In this document: one piece after another, positions 25,354 to 54,502 of the stretch
Layout: each line of letters opens with the position of its first letter
Position numbering within the stretch: the stretch's first letter is position 1
DNA from: an uncultured Chloroflexia bacterium
Lineage (GTDB): Bacteria > Chloroflexota > Limnocylindria > Limnocylindrales > CSP1-4
Length of the DNA stretch: 64,000 nucleotides
NCBI GenBank assembly: GCA_963757055.1
Contig: CAVWPX010000007.1
Span: 5,618-69,617, forward strand
Direction: 5' to 3'
Position numbers and translations under genes: made by a program
The notes under the pieces: model-generated
The model's input: only the letters and a program-made list of their open reading frames with translations
What the model was told of the DNA's origin: nothing
Database searches by the model: none

Positions 25354-26751
25354 GTGCAAGCCCGCCGGATCCGGCCAGACACCGGCCCGACCGACCGTCG
25401 CCGCCTCGCCGCGGCCGGTCTGTCGGCGGTCCTCCCGGGACTCGGCCAGGCGTTCAACCAGCGGCGCCGGCTGGCCCTCTGGTTCCTCATCCCATCGCTC
25501 ATCGTCCTGATCGTCGCGTTCGTCGTCGTGCGGACGCAGTCGCTGACCCATCTCGCGGCCTGGGCGATCGCGCCGGCCGTCCTCGGCACGCTGCTGATGC
25601 TCAACCTCGTGCTCCTCGCGTGGCGGCTGACCTCGGTCGGCCAGGCGTTCCTCGACACGCGGCGGGCCGGGCCGACCGGCAAGCTCGGGGTCATCGGCCT
25701 GGCCGTGATCATCGTCGCGGTGATCGTGCCGCACGCCCTGGCGTGGCACTACGGCGGCATCCTGGGCAGCACGTTCGGCAAGGTCTTCGCGGGTCGCGAG
25801 CTGACCGCCGCGGCCGACGGCGCCCCCACGGCCTCCCCGGGACCCGGCGTCACCGAGCGGGTCAACATCCTCCTCATCGGCGTCGACGCGACCTCGAAGC
25901 GGACGACCGAGCTGACCGACACGATGATGGTCGCCTCGCTCGACCCGGTCGGCCACACCGTGTCGATGGTGTCGATCCCGCGCGACCTCGTGAACGTCCC
26001 GCTCAAGGGCGGCAACGTGTACGGCCCGAAGCTCAACTCGCTGATGTCCTACGCCGACCGACACAAGGACGCCTTCCCCGCCGGCGGCATCGCCGCGCTC
26101 GAGGACGCGGTCGGGACGCTCCTGGGCATCCCGATCCACTACTACGCGCGGATCGACTTCGTGGGGTTCATCGGCATGGTCGATGCCGTCGGCGGCGTCG
26201 ACATCGATGTCGCCAAGGGCTTCTCCGACCCCGGCTACGACGGCTTCGGGCTCGACGGCCGCGGGTTCACGGTGACCAAGGGCCCGCACCACTTCACCGG
26301 CGCCGAGGCGCTCGCCTACGCCCGCGTCCGCAAGGCGCCCGGCGAGAGCGACTTCACCCGGGCGGCCCGGCAGCAGGAGGTCATCGTCGCGCTGCGCGAC
26401 CGGGTGCTCCGCGGCGGGAGCGTGCTCTGGGAGCTCCCGAAGCTGCTCGACGTCGTGGGCGACACGGTCCACACGGACATGCCGGTCGAGCGGCTGCCGG
26501 ACCTGGCGGCCGTCATGGACGAGATGGGCCGCGGCTCCATGGTCCGGGCGGTCATCAAGTTCCCGCTCGTCCACCCGATCAGCACCCGCTACGGCGACTC
26601 GCAGAACCCCGACATCACCGCGATCCGGGCGATGGCCGCGGCGCTGTTCACGGCGCCCGGCGTCGAGCCGCTCCCCTGGCCGACGCCCAAGCCGACGCCG
26701 AAGCCGAAGCCGACGAAGGCCCCGAAGGCGACCCCGACGGCCGACTCCTAG
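25354..26751 (+). CDS. LCP (LytR-CpsA-Psr) family cell-wall polymer ligase
   Basis: N-terminal TMs, NILLIGVD, TDTMMVAS, SIPRD, ALAYARVR, SDFTRAARQQ; Pro/Thr/Lys-rich tail. Confidence 0.92.
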   Translation: MQARRIRPDTGPTDRRRLAAAGLSAVLPGLGQAFNQRRRLALWFLIPSLIVLIVAFVVVRTQSLTHLAAWAIAPAVLGTLLMLNLVLLAWRLTSVGQAFLDTRRAGPTGKLGVIGLAVIIVAVIVPHALAWHYGGILGSTFGKVFAGRELTAAADGAPTASPGPGVTERVNILLIGVDATSKRTTELTDTMMVASLDPVGHTVSMVSIPRDLVNVPLKGGNVYGPKLNSLMSYADRHKDAFPAGGIAALEDAVGTLLGIPIHYYARIDFVGFIGMVDAVGGVDIDVAKGFSDPGYDGFGLDGRGFTVTKGPHHFTGAEALAYARVRKAPGESDFTRAARQQEVIVALRDRVLRGGSVLWELPKLLDVVGDTVHTDMPVERLPDLAAVMDEMGRGSMVRAVIKFPLVHPISTRYGDSQNPDITAIRAMAAALFTAPGVEPLPWPTPKPTPKPKPTKAPKATPTADS

Positions 26752-31716: not shown

Positions 31717-32940
31717 TCATCGGCGCATCGTCCGGTCGACCAGGTCGAGGTAGGCACGGCCCTCGCGCTCCCATGACAGCGCGGCCACTCGCGCGTGAGC
31801 GCGCGCGACCCTCGCCTCCCGGGCCGCGGGGTCGTCGACGATCCCTTCGAGGGCGGTCGCGAGGTCCGCGGCGTCACCCGGCGCGTAGGTCACGACGTCA
31901 TCGCCGAAGGTGCGCTCGACGAGCGGCAGGCGGCTCGCGACCACGGTCCGGTCCATCGCGGCGTACTCGTACGCCTTGGTCGAGAGCGAGTAGTCGGTGA
32001 ACTCCGTCCGTCGGGTCGGCGCCAGGCCGACATCGGCGGCGGCGATGGCCGCCGGCACCTCGCCGATCGGGATGCGCCCGTGGAACGTGACCGCGTCGGC
32101 GATCCCGAGGCGCTCGGCCTGGTCGTGGAGCGGCACCTCCTCGAAGTCCCGGCCGTACAGCTCGAGGGCGACCGGGAGCGCCGGCCGGCGGGTCCGCAGG
32201 ATCCCGATCGCGTCGAGCACGACGTCGAGCTCGTAGATCGGGCTGAGCCCGCCCGCGTAGACCAGCACGAGCCGGCCGTCGGCCATGAACGGGCGGGGCG
32301 GGCTCGCGGCCGGGTCGAACCGGGCCAGCGACGGCACGTTGGGGACGATCGTCAGCTTCTCGGGCGGGACGCCCAGCCCGAGCAGCCGGTCCCCGAGGGC
32401 CTCGTTGACCGTGATGACGGCGCTCGCGTAGCGCGTCGCCAGCCGCTCCTGCAGCCCGAGGACCGCCCGCGCGATCCCGCCGAGCCGCGAATGGAAGCGG
32501 CTGCCGAAGAAGACCGGCATGGCCTCATGCAGGTCGAGGATCACGGGGACGCCGACCATCCGGAGGGGCAGCGTCGCGAAGACGAGGAAGTCGGGCAGCG
32601 TGTGCACCTGGACCAGGCCGTAGCGGCGCCTGGGGTGGGCGCGGACGAGGGCGAACCCGGCGCGGAGGAAGAACGCCAGGTACTCCGCCAGGTAGATGCC
32701 GAGCCCGGCGCCCTGGTGGCGCTGGACGCCGAGCCGCCGGACCGCGACGCCCGCGATCGTCTCCTGCCCGGGATCGGACGGGCGGCGCAGCGCATAGACG
32801 TCGACCGCATGGCCGGCCGCGGCGAGCGCCTCCGCCTCGCGCCGCACGCGCGGATCCTCCTCGTAGTAGGAGTGGGTCAGCATCGCGATGGGACGGCGTG
32901 CCGGGCCGATCGCGCCTGACGGGTCGGTCGCCCTGTCCAT
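31717..32940 (-). CDS. Glycosyltransferase family 4
   Basis: DPRVRREAEAL, VILDLHE, YAGGL, LSTKAYEYAAM. Confidence 0.88.
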   Translation of the reverse strand: MDRATDPSGAIGPARRPIAMLTHSYYEEDPRVRREAEALAAAGHAVDVYALRRPSDPGQETIAGVAVRRLGVQRHQGAGLGIYLAEYLAFFLRAGFALVRAHPRRRYGLVQVHTLPDFLVFATLPLRMVGVPVILDLHEAMPVFFGSRFHSRLGGIARAVLGLQERLATRYASAVITVNEALGDRLLGLGVPPEKLTIVPNVPSLARFDPAASPPRPFMADGRLVLVYAGGLSPIYELDVVLDAIGILRTRRPALPVALELYGRDFEEVPLHDQAERLGIADAVTFHGRIPIGEVPAAIAAADVGLAPTRRTEFTDYSLSTKAYEYAAMDRTVVASRLPLVERTFGDDVVTYAPGDAADLATALEGIVDDPAAREARVARAHARVAALSWEREGRAYLDLVDRTMRR

Positions 32941-33040
32941 GCCCGAAGAGCGTACCGCAGCGCGTGCGCGCGGACCGGATCGCCGACCGGATCGCGTGCC
33001 GTCCCGACCCGGGCCGACACCCGTGTTACCCTCCGGCCCG

Positions 33041-33907
33041 ATGAACCTCCAGGCCGATGTGCCCACCCATTTCCGGAGCAGCGCCACCCGTCCGGGCGCG
33101 ATCGGCCTCCTTCGCGAGTCGGTCCACGACATCACGTCGCGGCGCCGGCTGATCGGCTATCTCGTCCAGGCCGACCTCCGCAAGAAGGGCTCCGACACCC
33201 TCCTCGGCAACGTCTGGTGGGTCCTCGACCCGCTCCTCCAGATGGCGGTCTACGTGATCGTGGTGTCCGTCATCTTCGACCGCGGCGGGCCGGACTATCC
33301 GCTCTTCGTCTTCGCCGCGATCCTCCCCTGGAAGTGGTTCTCGTCGTCGGTCACGGACGGCATCATCTCGGTCACGGGGCAGGACAAGCTGATCCGCCAG
33401 ATCCATTTCCCCAAGCTCGTGCTGCCCGTGTCGAGCGTCGTGTCGGGGATCGCCAACTTCGCCTTCGGCCTGATCCCGCTGTTCGGCCTCGCGCTGCTCT
33501 TCTACCGGGACCGCCTCACCTGGACGGTCCTGCTCATCCCGGCCATCGCGGTCGTCCAGTTCGTGTTCACGCTGGGCGTGACCATCCTGCTGGCATCGCT
33601 CAACGTCTTCTACCGCGACATCGGCAACGTCGCCCGGCACTTCCTGCGGCTGTGGTTCTACCTCTCGCCCGCGCTCTACTCCATCGAGCAGCTGCGCCAC
33701 GCCACGGAGTCGCTGCCGTTCCTCGGCCGGATCCTGCTGCTGAACCCGTGGGCCACGCTCTTCTCGGCCTATCACGACGTGATCTTCTACGGCGTCCTGC
33801 CCGACTGGAAGATGCTCCTCGAGGTCCTGCTCGGGTCGATCGTCTTCCTCGCGATCGCCACGCTGCTGTTCAAGCGCCTCGAGCCGTCCTTCGCCAAGGT
33901 CCTGTGA
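33041..33907 (+). CDS. ABC-2 polysaccharide exporter permease (Wzm/TagG-like)
   Basis: DLRKKGSDTLLGNVWWVLDPLL, YPLFVF.AILPW, YRDIG, LWFYLSP.LY, LNP. Confidence 0.92.
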   Translation: MNLQADVPTHFRSSATRPGAIGLLRESVHDITSRRRLIGYLVQADLRKKGSDTLLGNVWWVLDPLLQMAVYVIVVSVIFDRGGPDYPLFVFAAILPWKWFSSSVTDGIISVTGQDKLIRQIHFPKLVLPVSSVVSGIANFAFGLIPLFGLALLFYRDRLTWTVLLIPAIAVVQFVFTLGVTILLASLNVFYRDIGNVARHFLRLWFYLSPALYSIEQLRHATESLPFLGRILLLNPWATLFSAYHDVIFYGVLPDWKMLLEVLLGSIVFLAIATLLFKRLEPSFAKVL

Positions 33908-34773
33908 TGGTCGAGACGGAAGAACGGCTCAGCGCCGCGGTCCCCGATGCGGTCCGGCTCGGCGCGCCGGTGGCCATCGAGGTGCACGGGCTCGGCGTCC
34001 AGTACAGCCTGAAGTTCACCCGCAAGACGACGCTGCGGCATTCGTTCACGAACCTGTTCAAGCGCGAGCAGCTCGACGACTTCTGGGCGCTCCGCGACGT
34101 GGACTTCAAGCTCGTCCACGGCGAGTCCCTCGGCGTCATCGGGCCGAACGGCGCGGGCAAGAGCACGCTGCTCCAGGTGCTCGCCGGGATCATCACGCCG
34201 TCGGCGGGCTCGGTCGAGGTCGACGGCCGCATCTCCAGCCTGCTGACGCTGGGCGCGGGCTTCGACCAGGACCTGACCGGCCGCGAGAACATCCGGCTCG
34301 CCGGCGCGTTCATGGGCATCGAGGGCCCGGCGATGAGCACGCTCACCCCGAGCATCATCGAGTTCGCCGACATCGGCCCGTTCATCGACGCGCCGATCAA
34401 GACCTACTCCTCGGGCATGCGGGCCCGCCTCGGCTTCGCGATCGCCACCTCGGTCGACCCCGACATCCTGCTGCTCGACGAGGTCCTCGCGACCGGCGAC
34501 CAGGTCTTCCGGACCAAGTCCAAGGCGCGCGTGCTCGACCTCGTCCGCGGCTCGAAGGGCGTGGTCCTCGTCACCCACGACATGAACTGGGTCCTCGAGT
34601 TCTGCAACCGGGCGATCCTGCTCGAGCGCGGCCGGATCGTCGCCGAGGGCGAGCCGGCCGATGTCGTCGAGATCCACCGCGAGCACTCGCAGCAGACGCG
34701 GGCCGAGCGCGACGCCGCGCTGGCGAAGACGTCGCTGCCACCCGACGCCGCGAGGACCGGGCTCGTCGGCTGA
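33907..34773 (+). CDS. ABC polysaccharide exporter ATPase (Wzt/TagH-like, no C-terminal binding domain)
   Basis: GPNGAGKST, YSSGMRARLGF, LLLDEVL; TGATG coupling with the permease. Confidence 0.93.
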   Translation: MVETEERLSAAVPDAVRLGAPVAIEVHGLGVQYSLKFTRKTTLRHSFTNLFKREQLDDFWALRDVDFKLVHGESLGVIGPNGAGKSTLLQVLAGIITPSAGSVEVDGRISSLLTLGAGFDQDLTGRENIRLAGAFMGIEGPAMSTLTPSIIEFADIGPFIDAPIKTYSSGMRARLGFAIATSVDPDILLLDEVLATGDQVFRTKSKARVLDLVRGSKGVVLVTHDMNWVLEFCNRAILLERGRIVAEGEPADVVEIHREHSQQTRAERDAALAKTSLPPDAARTGLVG

Positions 34774-34783
34774 GGCCGGGCTC

Positions 34784-36103
34784 CTAGGACGCGGGCGCGG
34801 CGGTCGCCGCCGAGCGCAGCCGCTCGACCAGGTCGAGGTACGGCTGCACCACGATCTCCCAGGCGTACCGGTCGCGCGACGCGGCGAGGCAGCGGGCCCG
34901 CATCGCCGCGTAGTCCTCGGGTGACTGCTCGATGACCTCGCGCAGCGCGCGGGCGAGGTCGTCGGGGTCGGCCGGGTCGGCGACGGCCCCCAGCCGGTCC
35001 GCCTCGACGATCTCGCGCATGACCTCGAGATCGCGGCCGAGGACGACGGGCGTGCCCGCGGCCAGGCTCTCCCAGAACTTGTTGGGCGTCGAGAGCCGCT
35101 GGTTGAGCGAGTTGGCCGGCACCGCGATGATCGAGACGTCGGCCGAGGCGGCCCAGATCCGGACGTCGTCCGGGTGGACCGGCGGCAGCGTCACGTGCCG
35201 GCCGGCATAGCGCGGGTCCGCCTCGCGTTCCTGGAGCTCGCGGTCCCAGCCCGTCGTCACGGCGAAGCCGAGCATCACCAGCGCCGCGTCGCGCAGGCGG
35301 ATGACCGCGTCCGCGGCCTCCTCGAGCCCGCGCTGGCGGCCGAGCCGGCCGAGGAACAGCACGATCGCGCGCTCCGGCGGCAGCCCGGCCGCCTCGCGGA
35401 TGAGGTCCGGACGGACGGCCGGCGGGTCCCAGCGGGGCTGGCCGTTGAGCAGCACCGTCGGGCGCTCGCGGAACGGCCAGATCCGCTCGCAGTGGTCGGC
35501 GAGGGCGTCGTTGACGGTCACCACCGCATCGACCTGGCGCACCCAGCCGGCCTCCTTGGCCTTGTACCGGGCGAGGACCGGCCCGGGCACGTGCTGGTAG
35601 TTGTTCGAATCGAGGATCGCGTCGATGACGTCGTAGACGACGATCCCATCACGCCCGGCCCGCCGGGCGGCCTTCCCGAGCTCGATGGCGACGGGGAGCG
35701 TGAGGATGCCGAAGGCGTGATAGAGGTCGGCCGGCGGGACGCCCTTGCGGAGCGCCGCCCACCAGCCGCGGACGTGGATCGGCCAGAACCAGGCCTTGAT
35801 GCCCTTGTCGGCGCGTCGGACGAGGTTGCGCAGGACCTGGGTCGGCGGCTTCGGCGGCGGCGGCTGGTCCGACCACCGGCGGAAGACGCCCGTCGGCCGG
35901 AACCGCCGGATGCGGACCGCGCCATCGTGCTCGTCGTCCGCGACGCCAGGGCCGGCTACCGCGGCGATCTCGACCTCCCAGCCGGCCTCGACCAGGCTGC
36001 GCGCCACGCGGAGGCCGCGCGAGTACGGAGCGGCGGTGTTCGCGATGAGGAGGACGGCGCGCGGACGACGGCCTGATGCGCCGGTCGCCGACTCGGGCGC
36101 CAT
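34784..36103 (-). CDS. Glycosyltransferase family 4
   Basis: RGLRVARSL, VYDVID, VLFLGRL...RGLE, STPNKFWESLAAG.PVV. Confidence 0.88.
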   Translation of the reverse strand: MAPESATGASGRRPRAVLLIANTAAPYSRGLRVARSLVEAGWEVEIAAVAGPGVADDEHDGAVRIRRFRPTGVFRRWSDQPPPPKPPTQVLRNLVRRADKGIKAWFWPIHVRGWWAALRKGVPPADLYHAFGILTLPVAIELGKAARRAGRDGIVVYDVIDAILDSNNYQHVPGPVLARYKAKEAGWVRQVDAVVTVNDALADHCERIWPFRERPTVLLNGQPRWDPPAVRPDLIREAAGLPPERAIVLFLGRLGRQRGLEEAADAVIRLRDAALVMLGFAVTTGWDRELQEREADPRYAGRHVTLPPVHPDDVRIWAASADVSIIAVPANSLNQRLSTPNKFWESLAAGTPVVLGRDLEVMREIVEADRLGAVADPADPDDLARALREVIEQSPEDYAAMRARCLAASRDRYAWEIVVQPYLDLVERLRSAATAAPAS

Positions 36104-36108
36104 GCCGG

Positions 36109-37421
36109 TCAGGGGCGGGCCGACCAGCCGGCTCCCAGGCGCAGGACCTGCCGGGGACGGGTCTCGACGCCGTGCGAGCTGTCCACGGTGTCCACGACGA
36201 GGTCGGCGCGCGCATAGACGTCGGCCCAGTCGATGGCCCGATGGGCCGTGACCACGACCACGAGGTCCGTGCCGGTCAGCAGGTCGTCGATCCCGACGCC
36301 CTCGCGGCGGACCCCGTCCGCGTCGGTGAAGGACGTGACGTGCGGGTCGTGGAAGGCGACGTCCGCACCGCGTGCGGCGAGGCCCGCGATCACGTCGGCC
36401 GCCGGGGAGTTGCGCGCGTCCTGCACGTTCGGCTTGAAGGCCACGCCGAGGACGCCGACCCGCGCGCCCTTGAGCGCCCGGCCGCGCTCGTTGAGGGCCT
36501 CGGCCGCGAGGTCCACCACGTGGCGCGGCATGGCCAGGTTGATGTCGCCGGCCAGCTCGATGAAGCGGTCGACGAAGTCGAACTCGCGCGCCCGCCACGA
36601 GAGGTAGTACGGGTCGACCGGGATGCAGTGGCCGCCGACGCCCGGGGCCCGGCGTGAACCGCATGAAGCCGAACGGCTTGGTCGCCGCCGCGTCGATGAC
36701 CTCCCAGACGTCGAGGCCCATCCGCTCGCACAGCAGGGCGAGCTGGTTGACGAGGGCGATGTTGACGTTCCGGAACACGTTCTCGAGCAGCTTGGCCAGC
36801 TCGGCGGCATCGGGCGACGAGAGCTCGACCACGTGGTCGTTGATGCGGCGCAGCAGCGCCGCCGCGCGTGCCGTGCTCTGCAGCGTGGTCCCGCCGACCA
36901 GCCGCGGGATCGTCTTGGACGCGCTGGCCGGGTCGCCCGGGCTGACGCGCTCGGGCGCGAAGGCGAGGTCGAAATCGGGGCCGGCGAGCAGCCCGGTCGA
37001 CTCGAGCACCTCGCGGAACGCGCCGACCGTGGTCCCCGGGAAGGTCGTCGACTGGAGGACCACGAGCTGGCCCGCGTGCAGGTGCGGCGCGATCGTCTCG
37101 GCCGCGCCGATGACGGGGCGGAGGTCCGGGTCCTTGGTGGTGGTCACCGGCGTCGGGACGCACACGAAGATCGCGTCGGCGGCGTCGAGACCGGCCTCGT
37201 CCGGGACCACGGACGCTCAGGCCGTCGGCGAGCGCGGCGGCCAGCCGTTCGTCGGAGATGTCGTCGATCGGGGAGTGGCCGCGTCGCAGGTCGTCGATCC
37301 TGGCCGGGTTCGCGTCCACGCCGGTGACGTCGAGGCCGGCCTCCGCGAACGAGATGGCGAGGGGCAGGCCGACGTATCCGAGGCCGATGACGGCGACGTT
37401 GCGGTCGGGGGCGTCGGTCAC
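36109..37421 (-). CDS. UDP-N-acetylhexosamine 6-dehydrogenase (WbpA/WecC family; frameshifts near 37215 and 36650)
   Basis: VIGLGYVGLPLA, CVPTP, LQSTTFPGT, FAPER, AKLLEN.FRNVNIA, GVGGHCIPVDP, GVAFKPNV.D.RNSP. Confidence 0.9.
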
Positions 37422-37470
37422 CGGTCGATCTCCATGGTGCGATGAGGGAATCGTGCGTCTGACATGGCCG

Positions 37471-39218
37471 TCATCCTCCCACAGCATCTGCGGGTGCGTC
37501 CTGCCGATCGGCGAGCCAGCGCAGCGACCCCGGAGCGAGGTGGTCGCGGCCCGCATCGCCCAGCGCCTCGATGACCGCGGAGACGTCGTCGGCATCGGCC
37601 GCGACGATCGCCCGGCCGCTCCCCGATCCTGAGGTGGCGAGGTCGTCCCACCCGGTGCGGATGGCGGCGAGCGTGGTGGCGTGGCGCTGGGCGGCCGGCG
37701 TGGGGCCGGCCGGCCCCAGGCGGCGCCGGAGCCCGACGCGACCCGCTGGATCCCGCCGCTCGCGGCGAGCGGCCGGGGCCGGGGGCGGACCCACGACCCG
37801 GACGGCGACCGGGCCGTCCGGCAGGGCCGCGACGCGCTCGGCGGACGACGGGTGGACGGCGATCACGAGCGCGGACCGGACGGTGTCGGGGTGGCGCTCC
37901 CGGCGCGCTCGAGGCGGCCGGCGAGGGCCCCGGTCCCGCCGGACCGTCGAGCGCCGCACCGGCCTCGCGATAGAGGTCGAGGGTCCGCGCGGTGGTGACC
38001 TCGGCGCCGAAGCGGGCCTCGATGTCGTCGCGGAACCGTCGTCGGTCCAGCTCCGGCAGCCGGTCGCGAAGCCGGACGATGGCATCCGCGAGCGGCCCCG
38101 GGCCGTCGGCGGCGGCGATCTCGCCCAGCCGGCCGTCCCGCCCGACGATCCCCTCGACGCCGCCCGACGGGGTGGCCGCGACGGGCGCACCCGAGGCCAG
38201 GGCCTCCGCCGCGACCATCCCGAAGGTCTCCCAGGGACTCGGATGGACGAACAGCCCCGTCCGCCGCATCGCCGCGCCGACGGCCTCCCGGTTCGCCGCG
38301 GGCTCGAAGCGGACGGCATCGACGATGCCGAGGTCGCGCGCCATCGCGATCCAGCGAGCCTCATCGTCCCGCGTCGACGGCCCGATCATCCGGAGGTGGA
38401 GCGCCGGGCGTCGCTCGCGGGCGACGGCCACGGCGCCGAGCAGCGTCTCGATCCCCTTGTGCGGGGCGCGGGCGCCGACCCAGAGCAGCTCATCGTCGTC
38501 CCGCGGCTCGTCGGTCCACGCCGGGAAGAGGTCCATGGGCACGACGTTCGACAGGACGCCGACCGGCGATCCCTCGCCCGCGCCGCCGCCATCGAGCGCG
38601 GAGCGGATCCGGTCGGCCAGCGCCTGGCTGACCGCGACGATCGTCGCCGAGGACAGCAGGCGGCGATATGCCGCGGCCGCGTGCGGGTCCTCGAGCCGAC
38701 GCGGGATCGTCGAGTCGTGCTCGGTGACCACCAGCGGCAGCCCGCAGCTCGGCGGCCAGCGGGACCGCCGCGAGCCCGTCCGGCAGCCCCGTGTGGGCGT
38801 GGATCAGCGTCAGCGGCCGTCCCTCGGCGGTGGCGCGGCGCGCGAGCGCCCGGCCGAACGCCGCCGAGGACGCCCGCGTGGCGCGCGGCATGCTCGTCGG
38901 CCTCCGACCCGTCGACGGCACCCCAGGTCCGCACGACCGGCAGCCGGGCCACCGGGACGCCGGCCGCGCCCCAGTGCTCGCGGGAGCGTTGGTCGCCGCG
39001 GCGCCTTCCACCGCGCGCGCCCAGGCGGATTCGACGTCGGCGAGCCGCGCCGCACGGGTCGAGCTGTCGCCGCGGATCTGGACCGTCTCGAACGAGGCGA
39101 CCGTGACGTCCGCGCCGGCGGCGCGCAGGAGCGCCACGTGATCGGCGACCGAGCTGCCCCGTCCCGGCGCGTCGTGCGACGGGTAGCCGCGGGCGACCAC
39201 GAGGACCCGCAGGGTCAT
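37471..39218 (-). CDS. Glycosyltransferase family 4 with C-terminal extension (multiple frameshifts)
   Basis: MTLRVLVVARGYP, IHAH, VTEH, LLWVG....HKG, ETFGMVAAEALASG.PV. Confidence 0.75.
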
Positions 39219-40689
39219 CGAGCGTCCTCGCGACCCTGACGACGTTTGCGGCGCCGGCAGCCCGCGGTAGAGCTCGAGCAGCCGCGCCGATTCGAGCTCC
39301 CAGTTCCAGCGCAGCGTCGCGGCCCGGTGGCAGCGGCGGCGGAGGTCGTCGGCCGCCGCCGGGTCGAGGTCAAGGACGCCGGCCAGCGCACGGGCGAGCT
39401 CGGACGCCCGGGTCGGGTCGCACACGGCCCCCAGCGGTCCGTCGGGATCGTCGATCACGATCCGGCGCCGCTCCGGGAAGTCGCTGCTCACGACCGGCGT
39501 GCCGACGGCGATGCTCTCGAACAGCTTGTTCGGCGTCGAGTAGCGCTCGTTGAGCGTCCGCGGCTGGTTGGGCATCGCGGAGACGTCCGCGGATGCCACC
39601 CAGTCGAGGAGCACGCCGGGGTCGACCGCAGGGAGGACGTGGATGCGGCCGACGAAGCGCGGGTCGGCGGCGATCGCCTCGAGCGACGCCTGGAGCGGTC
39701 CGAACCCCATGTAGACCAGGTGCGCCGCCGCCATCGACGGCTCGAGCATCGCCTCCGCGAGGACCTCGAGCCCCCGATCGCGCTGGAACCCGCCGTGATA
39801 CAGGACGACCTTGGCGCCGGCCGGGATGCCCGCGGCGATGCGCAGGTGGTCGGGGCGCGGCTCGGGCAGCGACGTCTTCGGCGGCGCGTTCCGGACGATC
39901 ACGGGGTCGGGACCGCCGTACCGCCGGTGCAGCTCGCCCGCGATCGATTCGTTGACCGTGACGATGCCGGCGACCTGCGCGATCCAGCGCCGCTCGAGGG
40001 ACGCGAGGACGCGCCGGACCCACGGGGACTGGCGGGCGGTGTCCCCCGCCTCGATGAACAGCTCGTGGCTGTCGTAGATGACCGATGCCGCACCGCCCTG
40101 GCGGCGGCTGGCGCGGATCGCCGCGGGAAGGCCGGTCAGGTCGTGGCCGTGGTGGACGTCGGCGACCGGGGCGGCCGCGGCCGCGGCGGCGGCCCACCCG
40201 AGGACCGACAGGCGCCACCAGGCGAGGCGGTCGACGCCGTCCTCCTCGGCGTGCGGCGTCGGACTCGCGCGCCGGCTGACGACGTAGCGGATCCCCTGGA
40301 CGGTCGCATACGGCAGCGCGGCGATGGCCGTCAGGACGATCGAGGCGGCCTCGGTCCCGCCGATCCGGGTCGTCGGCACGGGCGCGCCGAACCTCCGAGG
40401 GGACCGTCCGGATCGCTCGCCACGGGTAGTAGCGCATGTCCCGCCAGCGTCGCCGCCAGTCGCCGGGCGACGGGCACCGGACGATGCGGATCCCGTCCCG
40501 CGTCTCCGATGCCGGCAGATCCGCCCCGCTCGGGAGCAGCGCCATGATCGTGACCGTCCAGCCGTCGTCGCGCAGGGTGGCCGCCTCGCGCAGCACGCGG
40601 ACATCGTTCGTGCAGGCGTTGCGGACATACATGACGACGCGTCGTCCGCTGCCCGGCGCGTCGGCGCGAGGGATGGCCGTCGCCGTCAC
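39215..40689 (-). CDS. Glycosyltransferase family 4 (frameshifts near 40390 and at the 3' end)
   Basis: DVRVLREAATL, HGHDL, IYDSHEL, VLYHGGF...RGLE, STPNKLFESIAVG.PVV; GTGA coupling at 40686-40689. Confidence 0.8.
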
Positions 40690-42119
40690 CACCGGCGCCC
40701 GGTGAGACGGGTGTACTCGGCGAGCAGCGTGTCCATCTGCCGCTCCCAGTTGTAGGTCTCGTCCGCCGCGCGTCGGATCCGCTCGAGCCGTGCGGCGGCC
40801 TCGTCGGGCGGCGCATCGAGGATCCGGCGGCACGCGTCGGCGATCGCCACGGGGTCGGCGGGATCGACGAGCAGCCCGGCGCCCACCTCGCGGACGATCG
40901 GGGCCATGCCCGGCAGGTCGCTCGCGACCACCGGGACGCCGGCGGCCATCGCCTCGAGGAGCTTGTTGGGCGTCGTGAGACGGTGGTTGAGCGTCGTCGG
41001 CTGGATCGGCATCGCCACGACGTCCGCGGAGGCGACCCAGTCGAGCAGCTCGGCCGGCGGGACGGCCGCCAGGACGTGCACGCGGCCGAGCGACTCGGGC
41101 TGCGCCGCCCGCTCCCGGAACTCGGCGTCGAGGCGGCCGTAGCCCAGCAGCACCAGGACCGCGTCGTCGACCAGGCGGATCGCCTCGAACAGCTGCTCGA
41201 CGCCGCGGTCGGGCGAGAAACCGCCCTGGTAGAGGACCACCCGCGTGCCTGGCGCGAGGCCGAGCCGCTCGTGGAAGCGCCGTGGTCGCGGCGACGCGGG
41301 CGTGTAGCGGTACGAGCAGTTCATCACCACGAGCGGCGACATGACGTCGAAGCGGGTCGCCATCACGTCCGCGTAGGGCTGGTTCACGGTGATGACGCGG
41401 TCGGCGCGACGGGCCCAGCGCCGCTCGGCGCGCGCGATCGTCCAGCGCATCGGTCCGCGCATCCGGGCGAGGTTCGCGGCGTCCATGTAGATGTCGCGGG
41501 CGTCGTACACCACCTTGGCCCGGACCGGCTGGCGGCCGGCCAGGTCGAGCGCCACGGGCACCCCCATGTAGGCCATGCCGTGGATGAGGTCGGCCTGTGG
41601 GGCGACGCCGCGCGCCCGCTGCGTCTGCGAGCGGATCGTCAGCAGGATCGAGCCGCGCCGCACGATGTCGCTCGCCGCACGGCGGATGAACGGCGCCGGG
41701 CGGGTCGCGGCCTCGTCGGCCGGGCCTGCGGCGACACCCGCCGCGGCGGGATCGGCACCGGCGGCGGCGTCCGCGCCGGTCGCGGCGCCCGTGGTCTGCG
41801 TCCCCGCGACCTCGGGCGGGTCGCCGCGCAGCCGCCGCACGAGCCGACGGACGTGCGCCCGGAACGGGAGCGCCTCGCCGGCCACGACCTTGACCCGGAT
41901 GATGTCGTAGCCGTTCGGATCGCGTTCCGCGGTCGGCAGGCCCTGCCGCCACCGCCCCAGCACCGTGACCGTGTGCCCGCGACGGGCCGCCGCCGAGGCG
42001 ATCCGCCACGTCCGCGAGTCGTACTCGCCGGTGGTGGGCAGCACGAGGAGGAGGCGCTGCGGGATCACCTCATCCAGGTCGCGGTCGTCCTGCTCGGTCG
42101 ATGCCGCGACCTCGGTCAT
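40686..42119 (-). CDS. Glycosyltransferase family 4
   Basis: DSRTWRIA, VVYDARDIY, VLYQGGF...RGVE, TTPNKLLEAMAAGVPVV. Confidence 0.88.
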   Translation of the reverse strand: MTEVAASTEQDDRDLDEVIPQRLLLVLPTTGEYDSRTWRIASAAARRGHTVTVLGRWRQGLPTAERDPNGYDIIRVKVVAGEALPFRAHVRRLVRRLRGDPPEVAGTQTTGAATGADAAAGADPAAAGVAAGPADEAATRPAPFIRRAASDIVRRGSILLTIRSQTQRARGVAPQADLIHGMAYMGVPVALDLAGRQPVRAKVVYDARDIYMDAANLARMRGPMRWTIARAERRWARRADRVITVNQPYADVMATRFDVMSPLVVMNCSYRYTPASPRPRRFHERLGLAPGTRVVLYQGGFSPDRGVEQLFEAIRLVDDAVLVLLGYGRLDAEFRERAAQPESLGRVHVLAAVPPAELLDWVASADVVAMPIQPTTLNHRLTTPNKLLEAMAAGVPVVASDLPGMAPIVREVGAGLLVDPADPVAIADACRRILDAPPDEAAARLERIRRAADETYNWERQMDTLLAEYTRLTGRRW

Positions 42120-43207
42120 CCCAGCGCCCCGACGATCGCGTCCACGGCGCCCGCGGGCGGGATCCGGGCGGCGGCGGCCCGGGCGCGGGCGTGCTCGGGC
42201 GCGTCGGATGCCGGGGCGAGGCGAGCCAGCTCGCGGACCGCCAGGTCGCGGTCGAGCCCGATGACCACCATCCGGCCCTCGGACGCGGCCACCGCCTCGA
42301 CCCATTCGGTCGTGCCCCGCAGGATCAGGCACGGGACCCCGAGCCAGGCGGCCTCGCGCTGGACGCCGCCCGAATCGGTCAGGACGGCCGCGGCGTGGAG
42401 CTGGAGCGCCAAGGTCGTGCGGTAGCCCTGCGGCTCGACGACCCGGACCCCGGCGGGCAGGTCGATCCCGGCGTCGGCGAGGGCGACCCGGGTTCCCGGG
42501 TGGAGCGCCAGCACGACCGGCCGCTCCGCGGTCGCGACCGCGCCGAGCAGGGCCGCCCAGGCGGTCATCGCCTCGACCGAGCGGTTCTCCGCGCGGTGGA
42601 CCGTGGCGAACAGGTAGCCGCCGGTCTCGAGCCCCGGCTCCACGCCGACCAGGGCCGCCACGTCCCGGATCTCCGGCACGGTCCGCGCCGCGAGGTCCTG
42701 CATCACGTCACCGACCTCGGTCACGCCATCGACGATGCCCTCGGCCGCCAGGTTGGCCACCGCGGTCGGCGTGGGGGCGAAGAGCCAGCGCGAGAGGTGG
42801 TCGGCGACGACGCGGTTGACCTCCTCGGGCATCCGCCGGTCGAATGAGCGCAGCCCGGCCTCGACGTGCGCGACCGGGACGGTCAGCTTGGCCGCGACCA
42901 GGGCCCCGGCAAGCGTCGAGTTCGTGTCGCCGTAGACGAGGACCGCGTCGGCCCCGGCGTCGCGCACGATGGGGTCGAGGGCGGACAGCATCCGCGCGGT
43001 CTGCTCCGCGTTGCTCCCGCCGCCGATGCCGAGGCCGTGGTCCGGCCGGGGCAGGCCGAGCTCGGCGAAGAAGGCGCCGGCCATCGCCTCGTCCCAGTGC
43101 TGTCCCGTGTCGACGAGGATCTCCTCGTGGCGGGCACGCAGGACCGGGCTGAGCGCGGCCGCCTTGATGAGCTGGGGTCGCGTCCCCACGACGCTGACGA
43201 TGCGCAT
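42116..43207 (-). CDS. Non-hydrolysing UDP-N-acetylglucosamine 2-epimerase (WecB/WbpI family)
   Basis: VVGTRPQLIK, TGQH, YGDTNSTLA, HVEAGLRS, MPEEVNR, HRAEN, TDSGGVQREA. Confidence 0.95.
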   Translation of the reverse strand: MRIVSVVGTRPQLIKAAALSPVLRARHEEILVDTGQHWDEAMAGAFFAELGLPRPDHGLGIGGGSNAEQTARMLSALDPIVRDAGADAVLVYGDTNSTLAGALVAAKLTVPVAHVEAGLRSFDRRMPEEVNRVVADHLSRWLFAPTPTAVANLAAEGIVDGVTEVGDVMQDLAARTVPEIRDVAALVGVEPGLETGGYLFATVHRAENRSVEAMTAWAALLGAVATAERPVVLALHPGTRVALADAGIDLPAGVRVVEPQGYRTTLALQLHAAAVLTDSGGVQREAAWLGVPCLILRGTTEWVEAVAASEGRMVVIGLDRDLAVRELARLAPASDAPEHARARAAAARIPPAGAVDAIVGALG

Positions 43208-43228
43208 GCCGAGAGGGTAGCCGTCCCC

Positions 43229-44674
43229 CTACGGGACGGGGACGCCGCCGGGTCGACCCGCCGTCCCGACCCCCTGGAACCCGACCGAGGCCGGGAGCCC
43301 CGCCGCGAGGCCGCCGAGGCTGTTCCGGCCGTCGTAGATCATCGCGAGGCTCGGGAACCACGCCATGTCGAGCTGGTCCCAGAGCGGGTCCGCGGTCTGG
43401 GTCACGATCGCGCGGACGTCGGGCGCGGGCTCGCCCCAGGTCCACGGCGTGGCGCCGGTCCGGGCGATCTCCTCGTCGGTGAGCAGCGGGTCATGGGCGA
43501 GGACGCGGGCACCCGCGAGCACCAGCCGCTCGATCAGCGGCATCGCGCGCGAGTAGGCGAGCTCCTTGACCCCGTGCCGGTAGGTCAGGCCAAGCACCAG
43601 CACCTCGACGCCGTCGAGGCCGCCGAGCGCGAGCTGGAGGCTGCGGATCGCCACGCCGACCTGGCCGTCGTTGACGCGCCGGCTGAGCGCGACGATCTCG
43701 AGCTCCGGTGCGCGGTCGAGCAGGAAGTGCGGGTAGACCGGGATGCAGTGGCCGCCGACGCCGATGCCGGGCTGGTGGATGTGGCTGTACGGCTGGCTGT
43801 TCGCGGCCGCGATCACCTCGGTGATGTCGACGCCGATGCGGTCCGCATAGCGGCTGAACTCGTTGGCGAGCGCGATGTTGACGTCGCGATAGGTCGTGTC
43901 GGCGAGCTTCGCGAACTCCGCGGCCTCGGCCGAGCTCATCGCCACGACCTCGGCGTCCAGCACGCTCTCGTAGAACGCGGCGGCGCGGGCCGTGCCGGCC
44001 GGGCCGAGCCCGCCGACGAGCTTCGGGTAGGTGGCCAGGTTCACGAGGGCGGCGCCGCTGTAGAGCCGCTCGGGCGAGAACGCGACCACGAAGTCGTCCG
44101 TGTCGGCGCCGGTCGAGCGGAGGCCGGTCACGGCCTCGAGCCGCGGCGCGTATCGCCCGCGGGTGTCGCCGACGGGTAGCGTGGTCTCGAAGATGACCGT
44201 CGAGCCGGCATGCACGCCGGGCGCGATGGCCTCGACCGCGGAATCCATCCAGCGGTGGTCGGGCCGCGACTCGTCGTCGAGGATGACCGGGACGATCAGC
44301 ACGACGACGTCCGCCTCGCGGGCCGCCTCGGCGCCGTCGAGCGTGGCGCGGAGCTGGCCGGCGGCATGGGCGTCGCGGACGAGGTCCGCCAGGCCCGGCT
44401 CCTCGCCGACATGCGACTTCCCGGCGTTGATCGAGTCGACGACGCGCGGGTCGATGTCGACCGCGATCACCGACCAGCCGTGCGAGGCGAACTGCCCCGC
44501 GAGCGGCAGGCCCATCTTGCCGGCGCCGACGACGGCCACGGTCCCGGCGGTGCCGGGCTCGCCGACCCATGGCGAGACGTGGCGTGCCGCGCCGTGACGG
44601 CAGGGGTTGGGCGGCAGCGAGATCGAGCCGCCGGCGAGGCTGTTCGTGATGCTCGGGCGCGTGCTCGGGCTCAT
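43229..44674 (-). CDS. Second nucleotide-sugar dehydrogenase (WbpA/WbpO-like)
   Basis: VGAGKMGLPLA, ETTLPVG, FSPERL, AKLADTTYRDVNIALANE, GVGGHCIPVYP. Confidence 0.92.
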   Translation of the reverse strand: MSPSTRPSITNSLAGGSISLPPNPCRHGAARHVSPWVGEPGTAGTVAVVGAGKMGLPLAGQFASHGWSVIAVDIDPRVVDSINAGKSHVGEEPGLADLVRDAHAAGQLRATLDGAEAAREADVVVLIVPVILDDESRPDHRWMDSAVEAIAPGVHAGSTVIFETTLPVGDTRGRYAPRLEAVTGLRSTGADTDDFVVAFSPERLYSGAALVNLATYPKLVGGLGPAGTARAAAFYESVLDAEVVAMSSAEAAEFAKLADTTYRDVNIALANEFSRYADRIGVDITEVIAAANSQPYSHIHQPGIGVGGHCIPVYPHFLLDRAPELEIVALSRRVNDGQVGVAIRSLQLALGGLDGVEVLVLGLTYRHGVKELAYSRAMPLIERLVLAGARVLAHDPLLTDEEIARTGATPWTWGEPAPDVRAIVTQTADPLWDQLDMAWFPSLAMIYDGRNSLGGLAAGLPASVGFQGVGTAGRPGGVPVP

Positions 44675-45702
44675 GCCGACACCAGCTCGACCGCGCGGCG
44701 GTCGCGCGCCGACGTCAGGAGGGCGTGGGCCAGGACGACGGCCCAGCGGCCGTCATCGACGTCCACGACCGGGCGGTCGCCCGTGCGGACGACGTGGATG
44801 AAGGCGGTCAGCTCGGCCAGCAGCGGCTCCTCGGTCGGGACCGGGAGCTCGGCGACCTCGCCGGCGAACGTCGGCGCGTAGCCGGCGATCATCCGCGGGT
44901 TCGTCAGCTCGGACGATCGCGTGAACGTCAGCCGCTGGGTGAGGTAGTCGAGTTCGAACATGCCCTCCTCGCCGACGACGGTGAGCTGTCGTCGCTTCGC
45001 CGGGGTCAGCCAGTCGACGTCGAGCATCGCGACCGTGCCCGATTCGAAGGACATCAGCCCGAACAGCAGGTCCTCGTGGTCCGCGTGGATCCGCTGGGCG
45101 GTCTCGGCGTACACGCGGATCGGCCGCTCGCGGGCGATCCACGACAGGATGTCGACGTCATGGGTCGCGAGGTCGATGGTCACGCCGACGTCGCGGATGC
45201 GCGCCGGGAACGGCCCGGCGCGGCGGCTGGTGATCGCGTACACGCTCGAGAGCCAGCCGGCGGTGAGGAGGCGTCCGAGCTCGAGCACGGCCGGGTTGAA
45301 CCGCTCGACGTGGCCGACCTGGATCGGCACGCCCCGCGCCCGGGACGCGGCCACGATGGCGTCCGCCTCGGGCGGGGTGGCGGCCAGCGGCTTCTCGATC
45401 AGCGCCGCGATCCCGCGGTCGATGGCCGCGAGGGCCAGTCCGACATGGGTCGTGGTCGGTGCGGCGATGACGACCGCGTCGAGGTCGGCCTCGGCGAGCA
45501 GCGCGAGCGGCTCGGCGAACCCGAGCGCGCCGGTCGCGGCCGTGGCGGCGGCCAGGGCGGTGTCATCGGGGTCGGCGACCGCCACGAGACGGGCGCCCTC
45601 CATCGAGGCAAGGATGCGCAGGTGGTTGCGACCCATGGAGCCGAGCCCGATCAGCCCGACGCGAACGTCCCCATCCCCCACCGGGGACCAGCTGGCCGTC
45701 AT
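44671..45702 (-). CDS. Gfo/Idh/MocA oxidoreductase, WbpB/WlbA-like 3-dehydrogenase
   Basis: VGLIG.GSMG.NH, EKPLA, GHVERFNP, DLATHD.D. Confidence 0.88.
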   Translation of the reverse strand: MTASWSPVGDGDVRVGLIGLGSMGRNHLRILASMEGARLVAVADPDDTALAAATAATGALGFAEPLALLAEADLDAVVIAAPTTTHVGLALAAIDRGIAALIEKPLAATPPEADAIVAASRARGVPIQVGHVERFNPAVLELGRLLTAGWLSSVYAITSRRAGPFPARIRDVGVTIDLATHDVDILSWIARERPIRVYAETAQRIHADHEDLLFGLMSFESGTVAMLDVDWLTPAKRRQLTVVGEEGMFELDYLTQRLTFTRSSELTNPRMIAGYAPTFAGEVAELPVPTEEPLLAELTAFIHVVRTGDRPVVDVDDGRWAVVLAHALLTSARDRRAVELVSA

Positions 45703-46808
45703 CCGGCGGCGACGCCCTGGGTCGCTCGTGGGTTCGAGACCTGGTCGCGGACCGCGGCGATCACCTCGTCCTGCTCCGCCTCGGCGAGGCCGGGGTACAT
45801 CGGCAGCGACAGGGTCCGGGCGGCGGCCCGGTCGGTGATCGGCAGGTCGGCGTGGATCCCGCGCTCGAGCACGTACGGCTGGCGGTGGACCGGGATCGGG
45901 TAGTAGATCCCGGTGCCGATGCCCGCGGCGGTCAGGCCCGCGATGATCTCGTCGCGTCGCTCGCCGACGTCGATGGTGTACTGGTGGAACACGTGCACGC
46001 GGCCCTCGGGCGTCACCGGGGTCCCGATCGGGAGGTCCGCGAACCCGGCGTCGTAGCGCGCGGCGATGGCCTGGCGGCGGGCGGTGTTGCGGGCCAGCTT
46101 GTCCATCTGGACGAGCCCGATCGCCGCGGCGATGTCCGTCAGGCGGAAGTTGTAGCCCAGGATCTCGTGGTGGTAGCGCTCGCGCATGCCCTGGTTGCGG
46201 TAGAGGCGGATCCAGTCGGCGAGGCGGTCGTCGTCGGTCGTGATGAGGCCGCCCTCACCGGTGGTCATGTTCTTCGTGCCGTAGAGGCTGAAGGCCGACG
46301 GGCCGAAGCTGCCGACCTTCCGGCCGCGGAACTCCGCGCCGTGCGCCTGGCAGGCGTCCTCGACGACCGCGAGGCCGTGGCGGTCGGCGATGGCCTGGAT
46401 CATCGCCATGTCCGCGGGGAGCCCGAACAGGTGGACCGGGCAGATGGCCTTGGTCCGCGGCGTGATCGCCGCCTCGATCCGGGCGGCATCGATGACGTAG
46501 GTGTCGGCCTCGATGTCCACGAAGACCGGCGTCGCGCCGGTGAAGAGGATCGAGGACACGGTCGCGTTGAACGTGTGGCCGACCGTGATGACCTCGTCGC
46601 CCGGGCCGAGCGCGAGCGCCTCGAAGATGGCCATCAGGGCGATGGTCCCGTTCGAGACGGCGATCGCGTGGCGGGTGCCGATGAACTCGGCCCAGCGCTC
46701 CTCGAGCTCGACGACGCGCTTGCCGCCCGCCAGCATGCCGCTGCGCAGGACGGCCGTGACGGCCTCGACCTCCTCGTCTCCGATGTCTGGGCGGGCGACG
46801 GGGATCAT
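45699..46808 (-). CDS. DegT/DnrJ/EryC1/StrS aminotransferase, WbpE/WlbC-like
   Basis: NGT.AL, PVHLFGLPADM, EDACQAHG, FSLYGTKNMTTGEGG, GYNFRL. Confidence 0.93.
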   Translation of the reverse strand: MIPVARPDIGDEEVEAVTAVLRSGMLAGGKRVVELEERWAEFIGTRHAIAVSNGTIALMAIFEALALGPGDEVITVGHTFNATVSSILFTGATPVFVDIEADTYVIDAARIEAAITPRTKAICPVHLFGLPADMAMIQAIADRHGLAVVEDACQAHGAEFRGRKVGSFGPSAFSLYGTKNMTTGEGGLITTDDDRLADWIRLYRNQGMRERYHHEILGYNFRLTDIAAAIGLVQMDKLARNTARRQAIAARYDAGFADLPIGTPVTPEGRVHVFHQYTIDVGERRDEIIAGLTAAGIGTGIYYPIPVHRQPYVLERGIHADLPITDRAAARTLSLPMYPGLAEAEQDEVIAAVRDQVSNPRATQGVAAG

Positions 46809-47482
46809 GAGCGGGCTCCTTGTGGGACGACGGCCGCGGGAAGCTCGCGCAGCGACTCGTCGTCGGGGACATAGATGTAGCGGCGCCCGCAGTCCGGGCA
46901 CGACAGGTGCGGGTCGCGAGCGTAGCGCTCGACGTCGGGCGGGGCGGCGTGACCGGTCGAGTCGGCCAGGCGGGCGCCGCAGGCGCACACCCAGCCCAGG
47001 CGGCGGGCCGGATTGCCGGCCACGAGCGCGTAGCTGCCGACCGCCTTCGTGACGATGGCGCCGGCGCCGACCATGGCGAAGGGGCCGATGTCGCAGCCGG
47101 CGACGACCACCGCGCCGGCGCCGATGGACGCGCCGTCGGCGATGGCGATCGGGGTGACGGTCCAGTCGGCCGCGCGGGCCAGGTCACCGGTCGAGGTGAC
47201 GGCGCGCGGGTGCCGGTCGTTGGTGAGGATGGCGCCGGGTCCGATGAAGACGCCGTTCCCGATCGTGACGCCGTGGTAGATCAGCGCGCCGTTCTGGATC
47301 TTGACCCGGTCGCCGATGACGACCCCCTCGTCGATGAACGCGTCGCGGCCGACGATGCAGTCGGCCCCGAGGGTCGCGCCGCTGCGAACCTGGGCTCGCT
47401 GCCAGATCGATGTGCCCGGTCCGACGGTCACTTCGGGCTCAAGGTCGGCACTCGCGTGGACGCGAGCCGATGGGTCGATCAC
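46805..47482 (-). CDS. Hexapeptide-repeat N-acetyltransferase, WbpD/WlbB-like, with C-terminal Cys4 ribbon
   Basis: IG..VKIQN, GVFIGP...TND..PR, GA.IGAGA.V, GNPAR..GWVCACG...CPDCG. Confidence 0.9.
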   Translation of the reverse strand: MIDPSARVHASADLEPEVTVGPGTSIWQRAQVRSGATLGADCIVGRDAFIDEGVVIGDRVKIQNGALIYHGVTIGNGVFIGPGAILTNDRHPRAVTSTGDLARAADWTVTPIAIADGASIGAGAVVVAGCDIGPFAMVGAGAIVTKAVGSYALVAGNPARRLGWVCACGARLADSTGHAAPPDVERYARDPHLSCPDCGRRYIYVPDDESLRELPAAVVPQGARS

Positions 47483-47576
47483 GGGGCGTGGGCTCCTGAC
47501 GGCGTGGATGGGTGCACGAGTATAGCCGAAGGTCCCCGATCTCCCGGCCCGGGGTCCGTGCTCCCGGCGCGCGCGG

Positions 47577-48267: not shown

Positions 48268-48461
48268 GGGGTCCTCGAGGGGCGCATCGGTGCGGGGAGC
48301 CGCGGGTGGACGGCGTTCCGGTCCAGCGTACTCGCCACCCCGCCTCATCGCATCCATGCCTCGCCGGACGCCGATCCTCGACACCTCCTGTATCCTGCGG
48401 CGCGACGCAGCCTCCACCGAGGCGCGACGGGGTTATTGAGGGGTCCGAGATCGTGGCGACG

Positions 48462-49665: not shown

Positions 49666-49722
49666 CCGCCTGAAACCCTGACCGACGCCGGCATCGGCCG
49701 ATCCGGGCCGGCGGCCCGGGTC

Positions 49723-50972: not shown

Positions 50973-51056
50973 GCCGGGCGACGGGTCCGGCTCTCGCCCG
51001 GCCGCTCCCGAGCGCGCCCTGGCCCAGGGCGTCGGGCGGCGGACCGCCCGGATCGG

Positions 51057-51855: not shown

Positions 51856-51880
51856 GGCCGGCAAGTGTACGAGCCGCCGC

Positions 51881-54370: not shown

Positions 54371-54502
54371 GACGGGTCCTCATCCGGATGACGGCGGTCG
54401 GTCGACGCTACCCGTGAACGCCGCCCGCGGGTAGGCGACGAAGGTCCCGGTGCGGACTGGTACGGTGCGGTCTTGGGCGGTCCGGTGGCATCCCGCCGGC
54501 GC

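Follow-up and report, generated by a model that had tools for sequence, protein, structure and literature searches.

Which sugar is made by the glycan gene cluster at positions 31717 to 47482 of this stretch, and where would a polymer built from it be placed by a bacterium that appears to have a single membrane? The window analyzed here, meaning the whole stretch of 64,000 nucleotides, is the part from 5618 to 69617 of one contig in a 2.8-Mb, 10-contig genome of an uncultured Chloroflexia bacterium, with a GC content of about 73%. The locus is a surface-polysaccharide cluster of an ordinary kind, exported by an ATP-binding cassette (ABC) transporter, to which a five-gene 2,3-diacetamido-uronate cassette has been joined. 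That it combines a diacetamido-uronate sugar cassette with an ABC-dependent glycan we hold with good confidence; the fuller reading, in which a monoderm bacterium uses this locus to produce an acidic surface heteropolysaccharide and to export it, the whole chain being accounted for apart from the final acceptor, we consider likely. The organism, a soil bacterium, belongs to "Candidatus Limnocylindria," the class of Chloroflexota equated with Ellin6529 (PMC10608941).

Gene borders were drawn from frame-resolved plots of GC content at third codon positions (GC3), from Pfam and NCBIfam matches, and from inspection of the junctions, and family calls were also made against PDB. Ten genes form a single minus-strand operon running from 47482 to 34784, in the order AcT, AT, GFO, DH1, Epi, GT1, GT2, GT3, DH2, and GT4d. 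The operon is convergent with wzm/wzt, and a divergent GT4 gene (GTdiv) lies beyond these. The features are as follows.

46805..47482, minus strand: AcT, first gene of the operon, predicted hexapeptide-repeat sugar 3-N-acetyltransferase, WlbB/WbpD-like (Pfam Hexapep; PDB 3MQG)
45699..46808, minus strand: AT, DegT/DnrJ/EryC1 pyridoxal phosphate-dependent sugar aminotransferase, WbpE-like (Pfam PF01041, 2e-126)
44671..45702, minus strand: GFO, predicted Gfo/Idh/MocA NAD-dependent sugar 3-dehydrogenase (Pfam PF01408/PF22725; NF040723)
43229..44674, minus strand: DH1, nucleotide-sugar 6-dehydrogenase, N-acetylhexosamine (WecC/WbpA) branch (TIGR03026)
42116..43207, minus strand: Epi, predicted UDP-2,3-diacetamido-2,3-dideoxy-glucuronate 2-epimerase, WbpI/WlbD-type (Epimerase_2; PDB 8SXV)
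40686..42119, minus strand: GT1, GT4 glycosyltransferase, intact (Pfam Glyco_trans_1_4, Glycos_transf_1, and Glyco_transf_4)
~39219..40689, minus strand: GT2, GT4 glycosyltransferase in two frames (aligned with the single-open-reading-frame [ORF] GT2 of relatives)
37471..39218, minus strand: GT3, long GT4 glycosyltransferase of about 580 aa in three frames (single-ORF homolog in the short-read metagenome-assembled genome [MAG] L020)
36109..37421, minus strand: DH2, second nucleotide-sugar 6-dehydrogenase of the N-acetylhexosamine type, in three frames (Pfam fragments in three ORFs; tblastn)
34784..36103, minus strand: GT4d, intact GT4 glycosyltransferase that closes the operon and is convergent with wzt (Pfam GT4 domains in the ORF 34787-37216)
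32888..33907, plus strand: wzm, ABC-2 type polysaccharide export permease (Pfam ABC2_membrane, PF01061)
33907..34773, plus strand: wzt, 288-aa ABC ATPase (Pfam ABC_tran, PF00005)
31717..32883, minus strand: GTdiv, GT4 glycosyltransferase divergent from wzm (Pfam Glyco_trans_4_4 and Glyco_trans_1_4)
25354..26751, plus strand: LytR-CpsA-Psr (LCP) protein, candidate ligase (Pfam PF03816, 5e-34)

Pfam, NCBIfam, and PDB comparisons recover the genes and the order that a first-pass annotation of this DNA had described. Its remark that they are mostly coupled is also correct: start and stop codons overlap at five junctions, as ATGA at AcT/AT and Epi/GT1, as GTGA at GT1/GT2, and as one or the other of these at AT/GFO and GFO/DH1. 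The GT4d ATG follows the DH2 stop codon by 7 nt, and wzm possibly starts later than listed, at one of the alternative start codons between 32939 and 33059. For the second dehydrogenase, the gene is present as claimed, but not as an intact 401-aa ORF at 36390 to 37595; it extends over three frames. The frame breaks of GT2, GT3, and DH2 had no place in that earlier account.

The nature of the sugar can be approached through the epimerase. Judged by its sequence matches, Epi is clearly of the WbpI/WlbD type and not of the WecB type. Its top match in PDB is the UDP-GlcNAc3NAcA 2-epimerase of Thermus thermophilus (8SXV; 285 bits, 1.1e-83), compared with 220 bits for the UDP-GlcNAc 2-epimerase of M. 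jannaschii (4NEQ) and 134 bits for Escherichia coli WecB (1F6D), so that the choice between WbpI and WecB, which the first-pass annotation had left to be made, falls on the WbpI side. The ligand-contact residues reported for the biochemically characterized Thermus enzyme (PMC10622841) are all kept in the Epi alignment (Arg12, Gln14, Lys17, Asp98, Glu120, Glu132, His208, Arg209, Ser284, Glu290, and Trp307), and two residues of the allosteric pocket are changed (Arg242 to Gly and Lys245 to Val). Epi also passes the generic wecB model of NCBIfam, a collection without Wbp-specific equivalogs, and is the sole Epimerase_2 protein found in this incomplete genome.

The acetyltransferase agrees with the epimerase, its top PDB match being WlbB of Bordetella petrii (3MQG; 1.5e-30), followed by 3-amino-sugar N-acetyltransferases of the QdtC/WxcM type. 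DH1 and DH2 both appear to belong to the N-acetylhexosamine branch, nearest UDP-ManNAc dehydrogenases, and are clearly not UDP-glucose dehydrogenases. DH1 passes TIGR03026 with 315 bits and scores about 225 bits with the UDP-ManNAc dehydrogenase equivalogs and 104 bits with TviB; in PDB, it matches 4R16 (191 bits) and Cap5O (174 bits). For DH2, the intact ortholog of locus L019 scores 400 bits with TIGR03026, 265 bits with the archaeal UDP-ManNAc dehydrogenase model, and 197 bits with TviB, and the PDB scores are 225 bits (4R16) and 202 bits (3G79). The end product predicted for the cassette is very probably UDP-2,3-diacetamido-2,3-dideoxy-mannuronate (UDP-ManNAc3NAcA). The similarity of Epi to the Thermus enzyme and of AcT to WlbB supports the earlier proposal that genes for a diacetamido-uronate nucleotide sugar are combined here with GT4s and Wzm/Wzt.

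Some of the evidence weighs against this assignment. The matches of AT fail to discriminate 3-amino from 4-amino chemistry, with 297 bits for 7B0D (1.5e-87), 271 bits for WbpE (3NU7/3NYU, about 1e-79), and 265 to 268 bits for perosamine synthase and ArnB. The model scores of DH1 and DH2 fix no substrate for either enzyme. GFO, going by its matches, is not a WbpB/WlbA ortholog and lies nearer the archaeal UDP-GlcNAc 3-dehydrogenase model NF040723 and the structure 7BVJ. NF040723 is its best NCBIfam model, with 261 bits against an equivalog cutoff of 450, so that it is the closest model without membership being established. Its best structure, 7BVJ, which we take to be GnnA (a label that our literature searches did not confirm), scores 99 bits, compared with 79 bits for WlbA (3Q2K), and no entry named WbpB is among its 35 PDB matches at E values of 1e-10 or lower. 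Because of GFO, the description of the pathway as WbpA/B/E/D/I-type is only partly right: it suits Epi and AcT but not the 3-dehydrogenase.

The near-equal scores of AT would also accommodate a cassette that makes another amino sugar, of the 4-amino or the 3-amino-6-deoxy kind, and the proximity of DH1 to UDP-ManNAc dehydrogenase models, together with the passing wecB score of Epi, would accommodate plain ManNAcA made via a WecB/WecC-like pair. We regard such products as quite improbable, given that Pfam finds no 4,6-dehydratase in the operon, that Epi is far nearer the UDP-GlcNAc3NAcA-specific enzyme than any UDP-GlcNAc 2-epimerase, that AcT groups with 3-amino-sugar N-acetyltransferases, and that the five cassette genes travel together across phyla.

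Returning to the diacetamido-uronate product, we propose a model for how the polymer may be built. Five translationally coupled enzymes would convert UDP-GlcNAc to UDP-ManNAc3NAcA through C3 oxidation by GFO, transamination by the DegT aminotransferase, 3-N-acetylation by the hexapeptide transferase, C6 oxidation by DH1, and 2-epimerization by the WbpI-type Epi, while DH2 would be the source of a second N-acetylhexosaminuronic acid. The polyprenyl-diphosphate-GlcNAc primer on which the five GT4s would extend the chain in the cytoplasm probably comes from a WecA/TagO-like enzyme whose gene lies on a different contig. The finished lipid-linked chain would then be exported by Wzm/Wzt, and an LCP enzyme would most likely move it to peptidoglycan. 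Priming, chain growth, and export are the elements that have genomic support. The genes and their order, the families, the type of Epi, and the failure to find LPS or outer-membrane markers are observations; we infer the acceptor, as well as the substrates, the sequence of C3 and C6 oxidation, and the identity of the primer.

For export, the first-pass annotation had described a short Wzt without a carbohydrate-binding domain, which Pfam confirms: ABC_tran matches residues 62 to 193 only, and no C-terminal carbohydrate-binding domain follows. In NCBIfam, wzt scores 192 bits with TagH and 181 bits with galactan Wzt, and wzm matches the galactan Wzm/RfbD model at 1e-12, all of these being under the cutoff. 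An adjacent, coupled permease and ATPase in a locus without Wzx or Wzy is the arrangement by which ABC-transporter-dependent assembly is recognized, and it is the arrangement found here. As had also been remarked, no initiating transferase, Wzx, or Wzy is visible in the window; the matches to PF00953, PF02397, PF04932, and PF01943 are on other contigs only. One of them, a PF00953 protein on contig C8, is distinct from MraY, has WecA as its best model (124 bits; cutoff, 326), and is a candidate initiator for the cluster. The only Wzy_C and Bac_transf genes of the genome lie together on contig C10. There, a second polysaccharide locus (247747 to 264216) contains both of these genes and a 69%-identical DNA paralog of the GT2 region; this locus is probably a Wzy-dependent system.

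The envelope itself limits what the polymer can be. Neither LpxC nor Omp85/BamA was found in any of 41 genomes of the genus (0/41 for each; this genome and 40 congeners, of which nine are 90% complete or better), and the controls for these searches behaved as expected. The description of the host as an apparent monoderm therefore stands, and the proposal of the first-pass annotation survives the check for lpx genes by which, as it had said, it could be refuted. As the host is without lipopolysaccharide (LPS) or an outer membrane, the product is not an O-antigen.

Peptidoglycan is a candidate acceptor. The genome contains three LCP genes, one of which is about 5 kb from the cluster, where the first-pass annotation had placed it, and such proteins occur generally among Chloroflexi, with the exception of Dehalococcoides (PMC2632651). 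From these genes, LCP-mediated attachment of the glycan to peptidoglycan is plausible, with a probability that we would put just short of even. The nearby LCP gene, on the other hand, is not contiguous with the cluster, being separated from it by RNase PH, MazG, and peptidyl-prolyl isomerase genes, and a search for TagA/WecG (PF03808) gave no match in this genome, which is scored 75% complete. In the loci fetched from relatives, whose flanks are short, there was no LCP match.

The separate position of the LCP gene and the lack of a TagA/WecG match, the presence in the neighborhood of dTDP-rhamnose genes and of two secreted enzymes that have Ig-like tails, and the Wzy_C-domain and Bac_transf proteins encoded on contig C10 would also fit a glycan that is not on peptidoglycan at all. 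It might instead be transferred to surface or S-layer-like proteins, of which the slg system of Geobacillus is an example, be lipid-anchored, or be released as a free capsule or exopolysaccharide. We give this group of outcomes a real, if smaller, chance of about one in three. The Wzy_C gene is on another contig and apparently belongs to a Wzy-type locus of its own, a search of the genome for SLH domains gave no match, and the three LCP copies and the generality of LCP proteins in the phylum favor the wall. An S-layer model and a classic teichoic linkage-unit model were both set aside, as neither SLH domains nor TagA/WecG turned up when looked for, and the S-layer-anchoring role that the first-pass annotation had entertained finds no support.

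Is the operon intact? The region from GT2 to DH2 contains five to six frame breaks. GT2 has one, between 40337 and 40465, and then runs into GT3 without an in-frame stop, with an ATGA overlap in the neighboring frame at 39218 to 39215; this read-through is either an indel in the tail of the gene or a real fusion. GT3 occupies window frames -1, -2, and -3 when compared with the single ORF of L020, in which Pfam finds a GT4 N-domain and a Glycos_transf_1 domain, and its breaks are near 38747 and between 37734 and 37934. In DH2, the N-terminal Rossmann, middle, and C-terminal pieces each have their own frame. Compared with intact orthologs (G007, G014, G019, and G024), to which DH2 is 77 to 82% identical, there are single-base insertions near 37211 and near 36647, the latter within a GGGCCCCGGG run, and the stop codon is at the homologous position.

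To judge such breaks, 70 intact ORFs (at least 250 aa) from 280 kb of the congener G024 (4 contigs, 92% complete) were searched against this genome, the test sampling its contigs C3 and C4. Among 58 syntenic orthologs, 24 (41%) are split over two to four frames. The 75.3 kb compared contain 34 frame switches (0.45 per kb), and genes of 85 to 90% identity are included. At this rate, 7.1 breaks would be expected in the 15.8-kb cluster, close to the number seen. Because conserved orthologs are split in the same way, we read the breaks in GT2, GT3, and DH2, with high confidence, as indel errors of a Nanopore assembly and not as gene decay. Each broken piece has coding-type GC3, identity at the level of its orthologs, and no internal stop in its own frame. 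Further breaks occur in the window in the DUF3048 gene, in a GT4 gene at 49.7 to 50.7 kb, and in the rml genes, and the pattern recurs in few-contig, low-completeness congeners (G011 and G012). Indel-type frame breaks also explain how a 10-contig assembly can have a completeness score of 75%. Among named relatives, Microflora Danica MAGs come closest by their aminotransferase loci; these MAGs are Nanopore-only and received one round of Medaka polishing (PMC12313526).

The breaks are, however, clumped: all of them fall within 4.6 kb, and the remaining 11.2 kb of the cluster are free of breaks (P of about 0.006 under a uniform rate), which keeps recent decay of GT2-GT3-DH2 in consideration. Under that explanation, the three would be genuine pseudogenes in a strain that is losing part of its glycan operon, and the polymer would be truncated or not made; the complete absence of the GT2-GT3 segment from the closest relative does mark this part of the operon as evolutionarily labile. 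Housekeeping genes show such clumping too, with three breaks apiece in three of them, and the open, conserved frames of the pieces, the insertion inside the GGGCCCCGGG run, and the same pattern in G011 and G012 speak for assembly errors, so that we consider decay improbable. Pseudogenization of DH2 and GT3, as a candidate explanation, was largely rejected after the genome-wide ortholog test. Elsewhere in the window, a 988-aa ORF with homocysteine S-methyltransferase and luciferase-like monooxygenase domains (16037 to 19000, minus strand) may consist of two genes merged by an indel or be a real fusion. As indels come roughly once per 2 kb, any apparent pseudogene, fusion, or unusual ORF length in this genome is suspect without read-level support, and the same caution in annotation likely applies to similar few-contig, low-completeness MAGs.

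AT orthologs of 71 to 93% identity are found in MAGs named "Candidatus Limnocylindrales" and "uncultured Chloroflexia," and these nearest loci speak against an actinobacterial origin, which the GC content and size of the genome might suggest. The order AcT-AT-GFO-DH1-Epi is kept in about 20 Limnocylindrales loci and is intact in short-read MAGs; DH2 and the set of glycosyltransferases differ between loci. The closest relative, L036 (AT 93% identical), lacks GT2-GT3 in its segment 14770 to 21091, which corresponds to 34784 to 42119 of the window, and keeps DH2 and wzm/wzt, so the glycosyltransferase block is swapped even among near neighbors. GTdiv is 72 to 75% identical and in the same place beside wzm in L016, L020, and L021. 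As a GFO ortholog is present in only 25 of 61 genomes of the genus (5 of 13 high-quality ones), the cassette is an accessory, species-variable surface trait. At the class level, Epi was tallied in 60 of 101 genomes, a count that mixes true orthologs with more distant epimerases and includes two unpublished genomes (G157 and G166); our conclusions are independent of it. Outside the class, AcT-AT-GFO(-DH/-Epi) is also found in Anaerolineae, Ktedonobacteria, Methanosarcina, Methanolobus, and other archaea.

ManNAc3NAcA is known from the LPS of Pseudomonas and Bordetella. The five enzyme classes clustered here are those of the Wbp/Wlb systems (WbpA-B-E-D-I of Pseudomonas aeruginosa, WlbA-D of Bordetella, and their counterparts in T. 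thermophilus HB27), with Epi nearest the Thermus enzyme and its contact residues kept, AcT nearest WlbB, and WbpE among the top matches of AT. The present system differs from them in its 3-dehydrogenase, in a host without LPS, and in the two altered allosteric-pocket residues of Epi. Thermus, which also has Wbp homologs, has an outer membrane with glycolipids and not LPS (PMC10622841). Nor is the sugar new for monoderms, since the secondary cell wall polymer (SCWP) of Geobacillus stearothermophilus contains ManNAc3NAcA (PMC4232325). Like that SCWP, the polymer predicted here from genes would be an anionic diacetamido-uronate polymer of a monoderm host. With ABC-dependent wall glycopolymers (teichuronic and teichoic acids and mycobacterial galactan), our locus has export of the Wzm/Wzt type in common, and the genome also encodes LCP enzymes and a candidate initiator that resembles WecA/TagO. 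The differences from both are the phylum, Chloroflexota, and the failure to find TagA/WecG or SLH proteins in the genome.

A second likeness is with the acetamido-sugar cassette of methanogens. In Methanosarcina and Methanolobus (L063, L064, L080, L082, and L083), the order AcT-AT-GFO-DH is shared, AT is about 50% identical, and the best GFO model is archaeal, although the archaeal GFO proteins are only 33 to 36% identical and the NF040723 score is under its cutoff. In the archaeal cassette, C3 oxidation reportedly comes first (work of Namboori and Graham, 2008). The methanogen sugar feeds a dolichol-linked N-glycan, whereas here it would enter a bacterial polymer exported by Wzm/Wzt; glycans of M. 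voltae contain GlcNAc3NAcA and ManNAcA (PMC2952790). The resemblance suggests either an old shared cassette or interdomain transfer. Compared with known systems, the novelties are modest: a non-WbpB 3-dehydrogenase and a gene order common to methanogens. A bolder scenario, in which the cassette works in an archaeal order (C3 first, C6 oxidation and 2-epimerization last), has been exchanged between methanogens and Chloroflexota, and supplies soil Limnocylindria with a major anionic polymer of the wall that resembles teichuronic acid, we think unlikely on present evidence.

The glycan neighborhood extends past the coordinates of the cluster, as a Glycos_transf_2 glycosyltransferase of the GT2 family, which may be a polyprenol-phosphate glycosyltransferase, and one more GT4 lie in several frames at 49726 to 51897 on the minus strand. 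Between the operon and these genes, a coding-like GC3 signal with three phase switches covers 47500 to 48870, with no Pfam match in any frame at 47.5 to 48.8 kb, and a DUF3048 protein is encoded at 48132 to 49670 (plus strand), its N-terminal domain switching frame near 48850. Farther on, between the glycosyltransferase and rml genes, two large secreted proteins are encoded at 51884 to 56803 (minus strand); one is a GH18 chitinase-like enzyme, and the two have FlgD_ig, Big_13, and CHU_C-like C-terminal repeats in common. The dTDP-rhamnose genes follow at 56837 to 60105 (minus strand), with RmlD and RmlC domains in one ORF (56837 to 58435), an RmlB-like dehydratase (58186 to 59358), and a truncated RmlA-like nucleotidyltransferase (59530 to 60105); they look frame-broken, and MreC and MreB come next (60332 to 62456).

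Limnocylindria are abundant in soil and freshwater. To our knowledge, the class has no cultured member, and we know of no description of its envelope chemistry. The locus predicts that some Limnocylindria species display an acidic diacetamido-uronate polysaccharide, made with a sugar cassette that is widely common to Chloroflexota and methanogens. If the scenario of an archaeal-order cassette supplying a major wall polymer were true, the locus would be the first to open the wall chemistry of Limnocylindria to genetic study.

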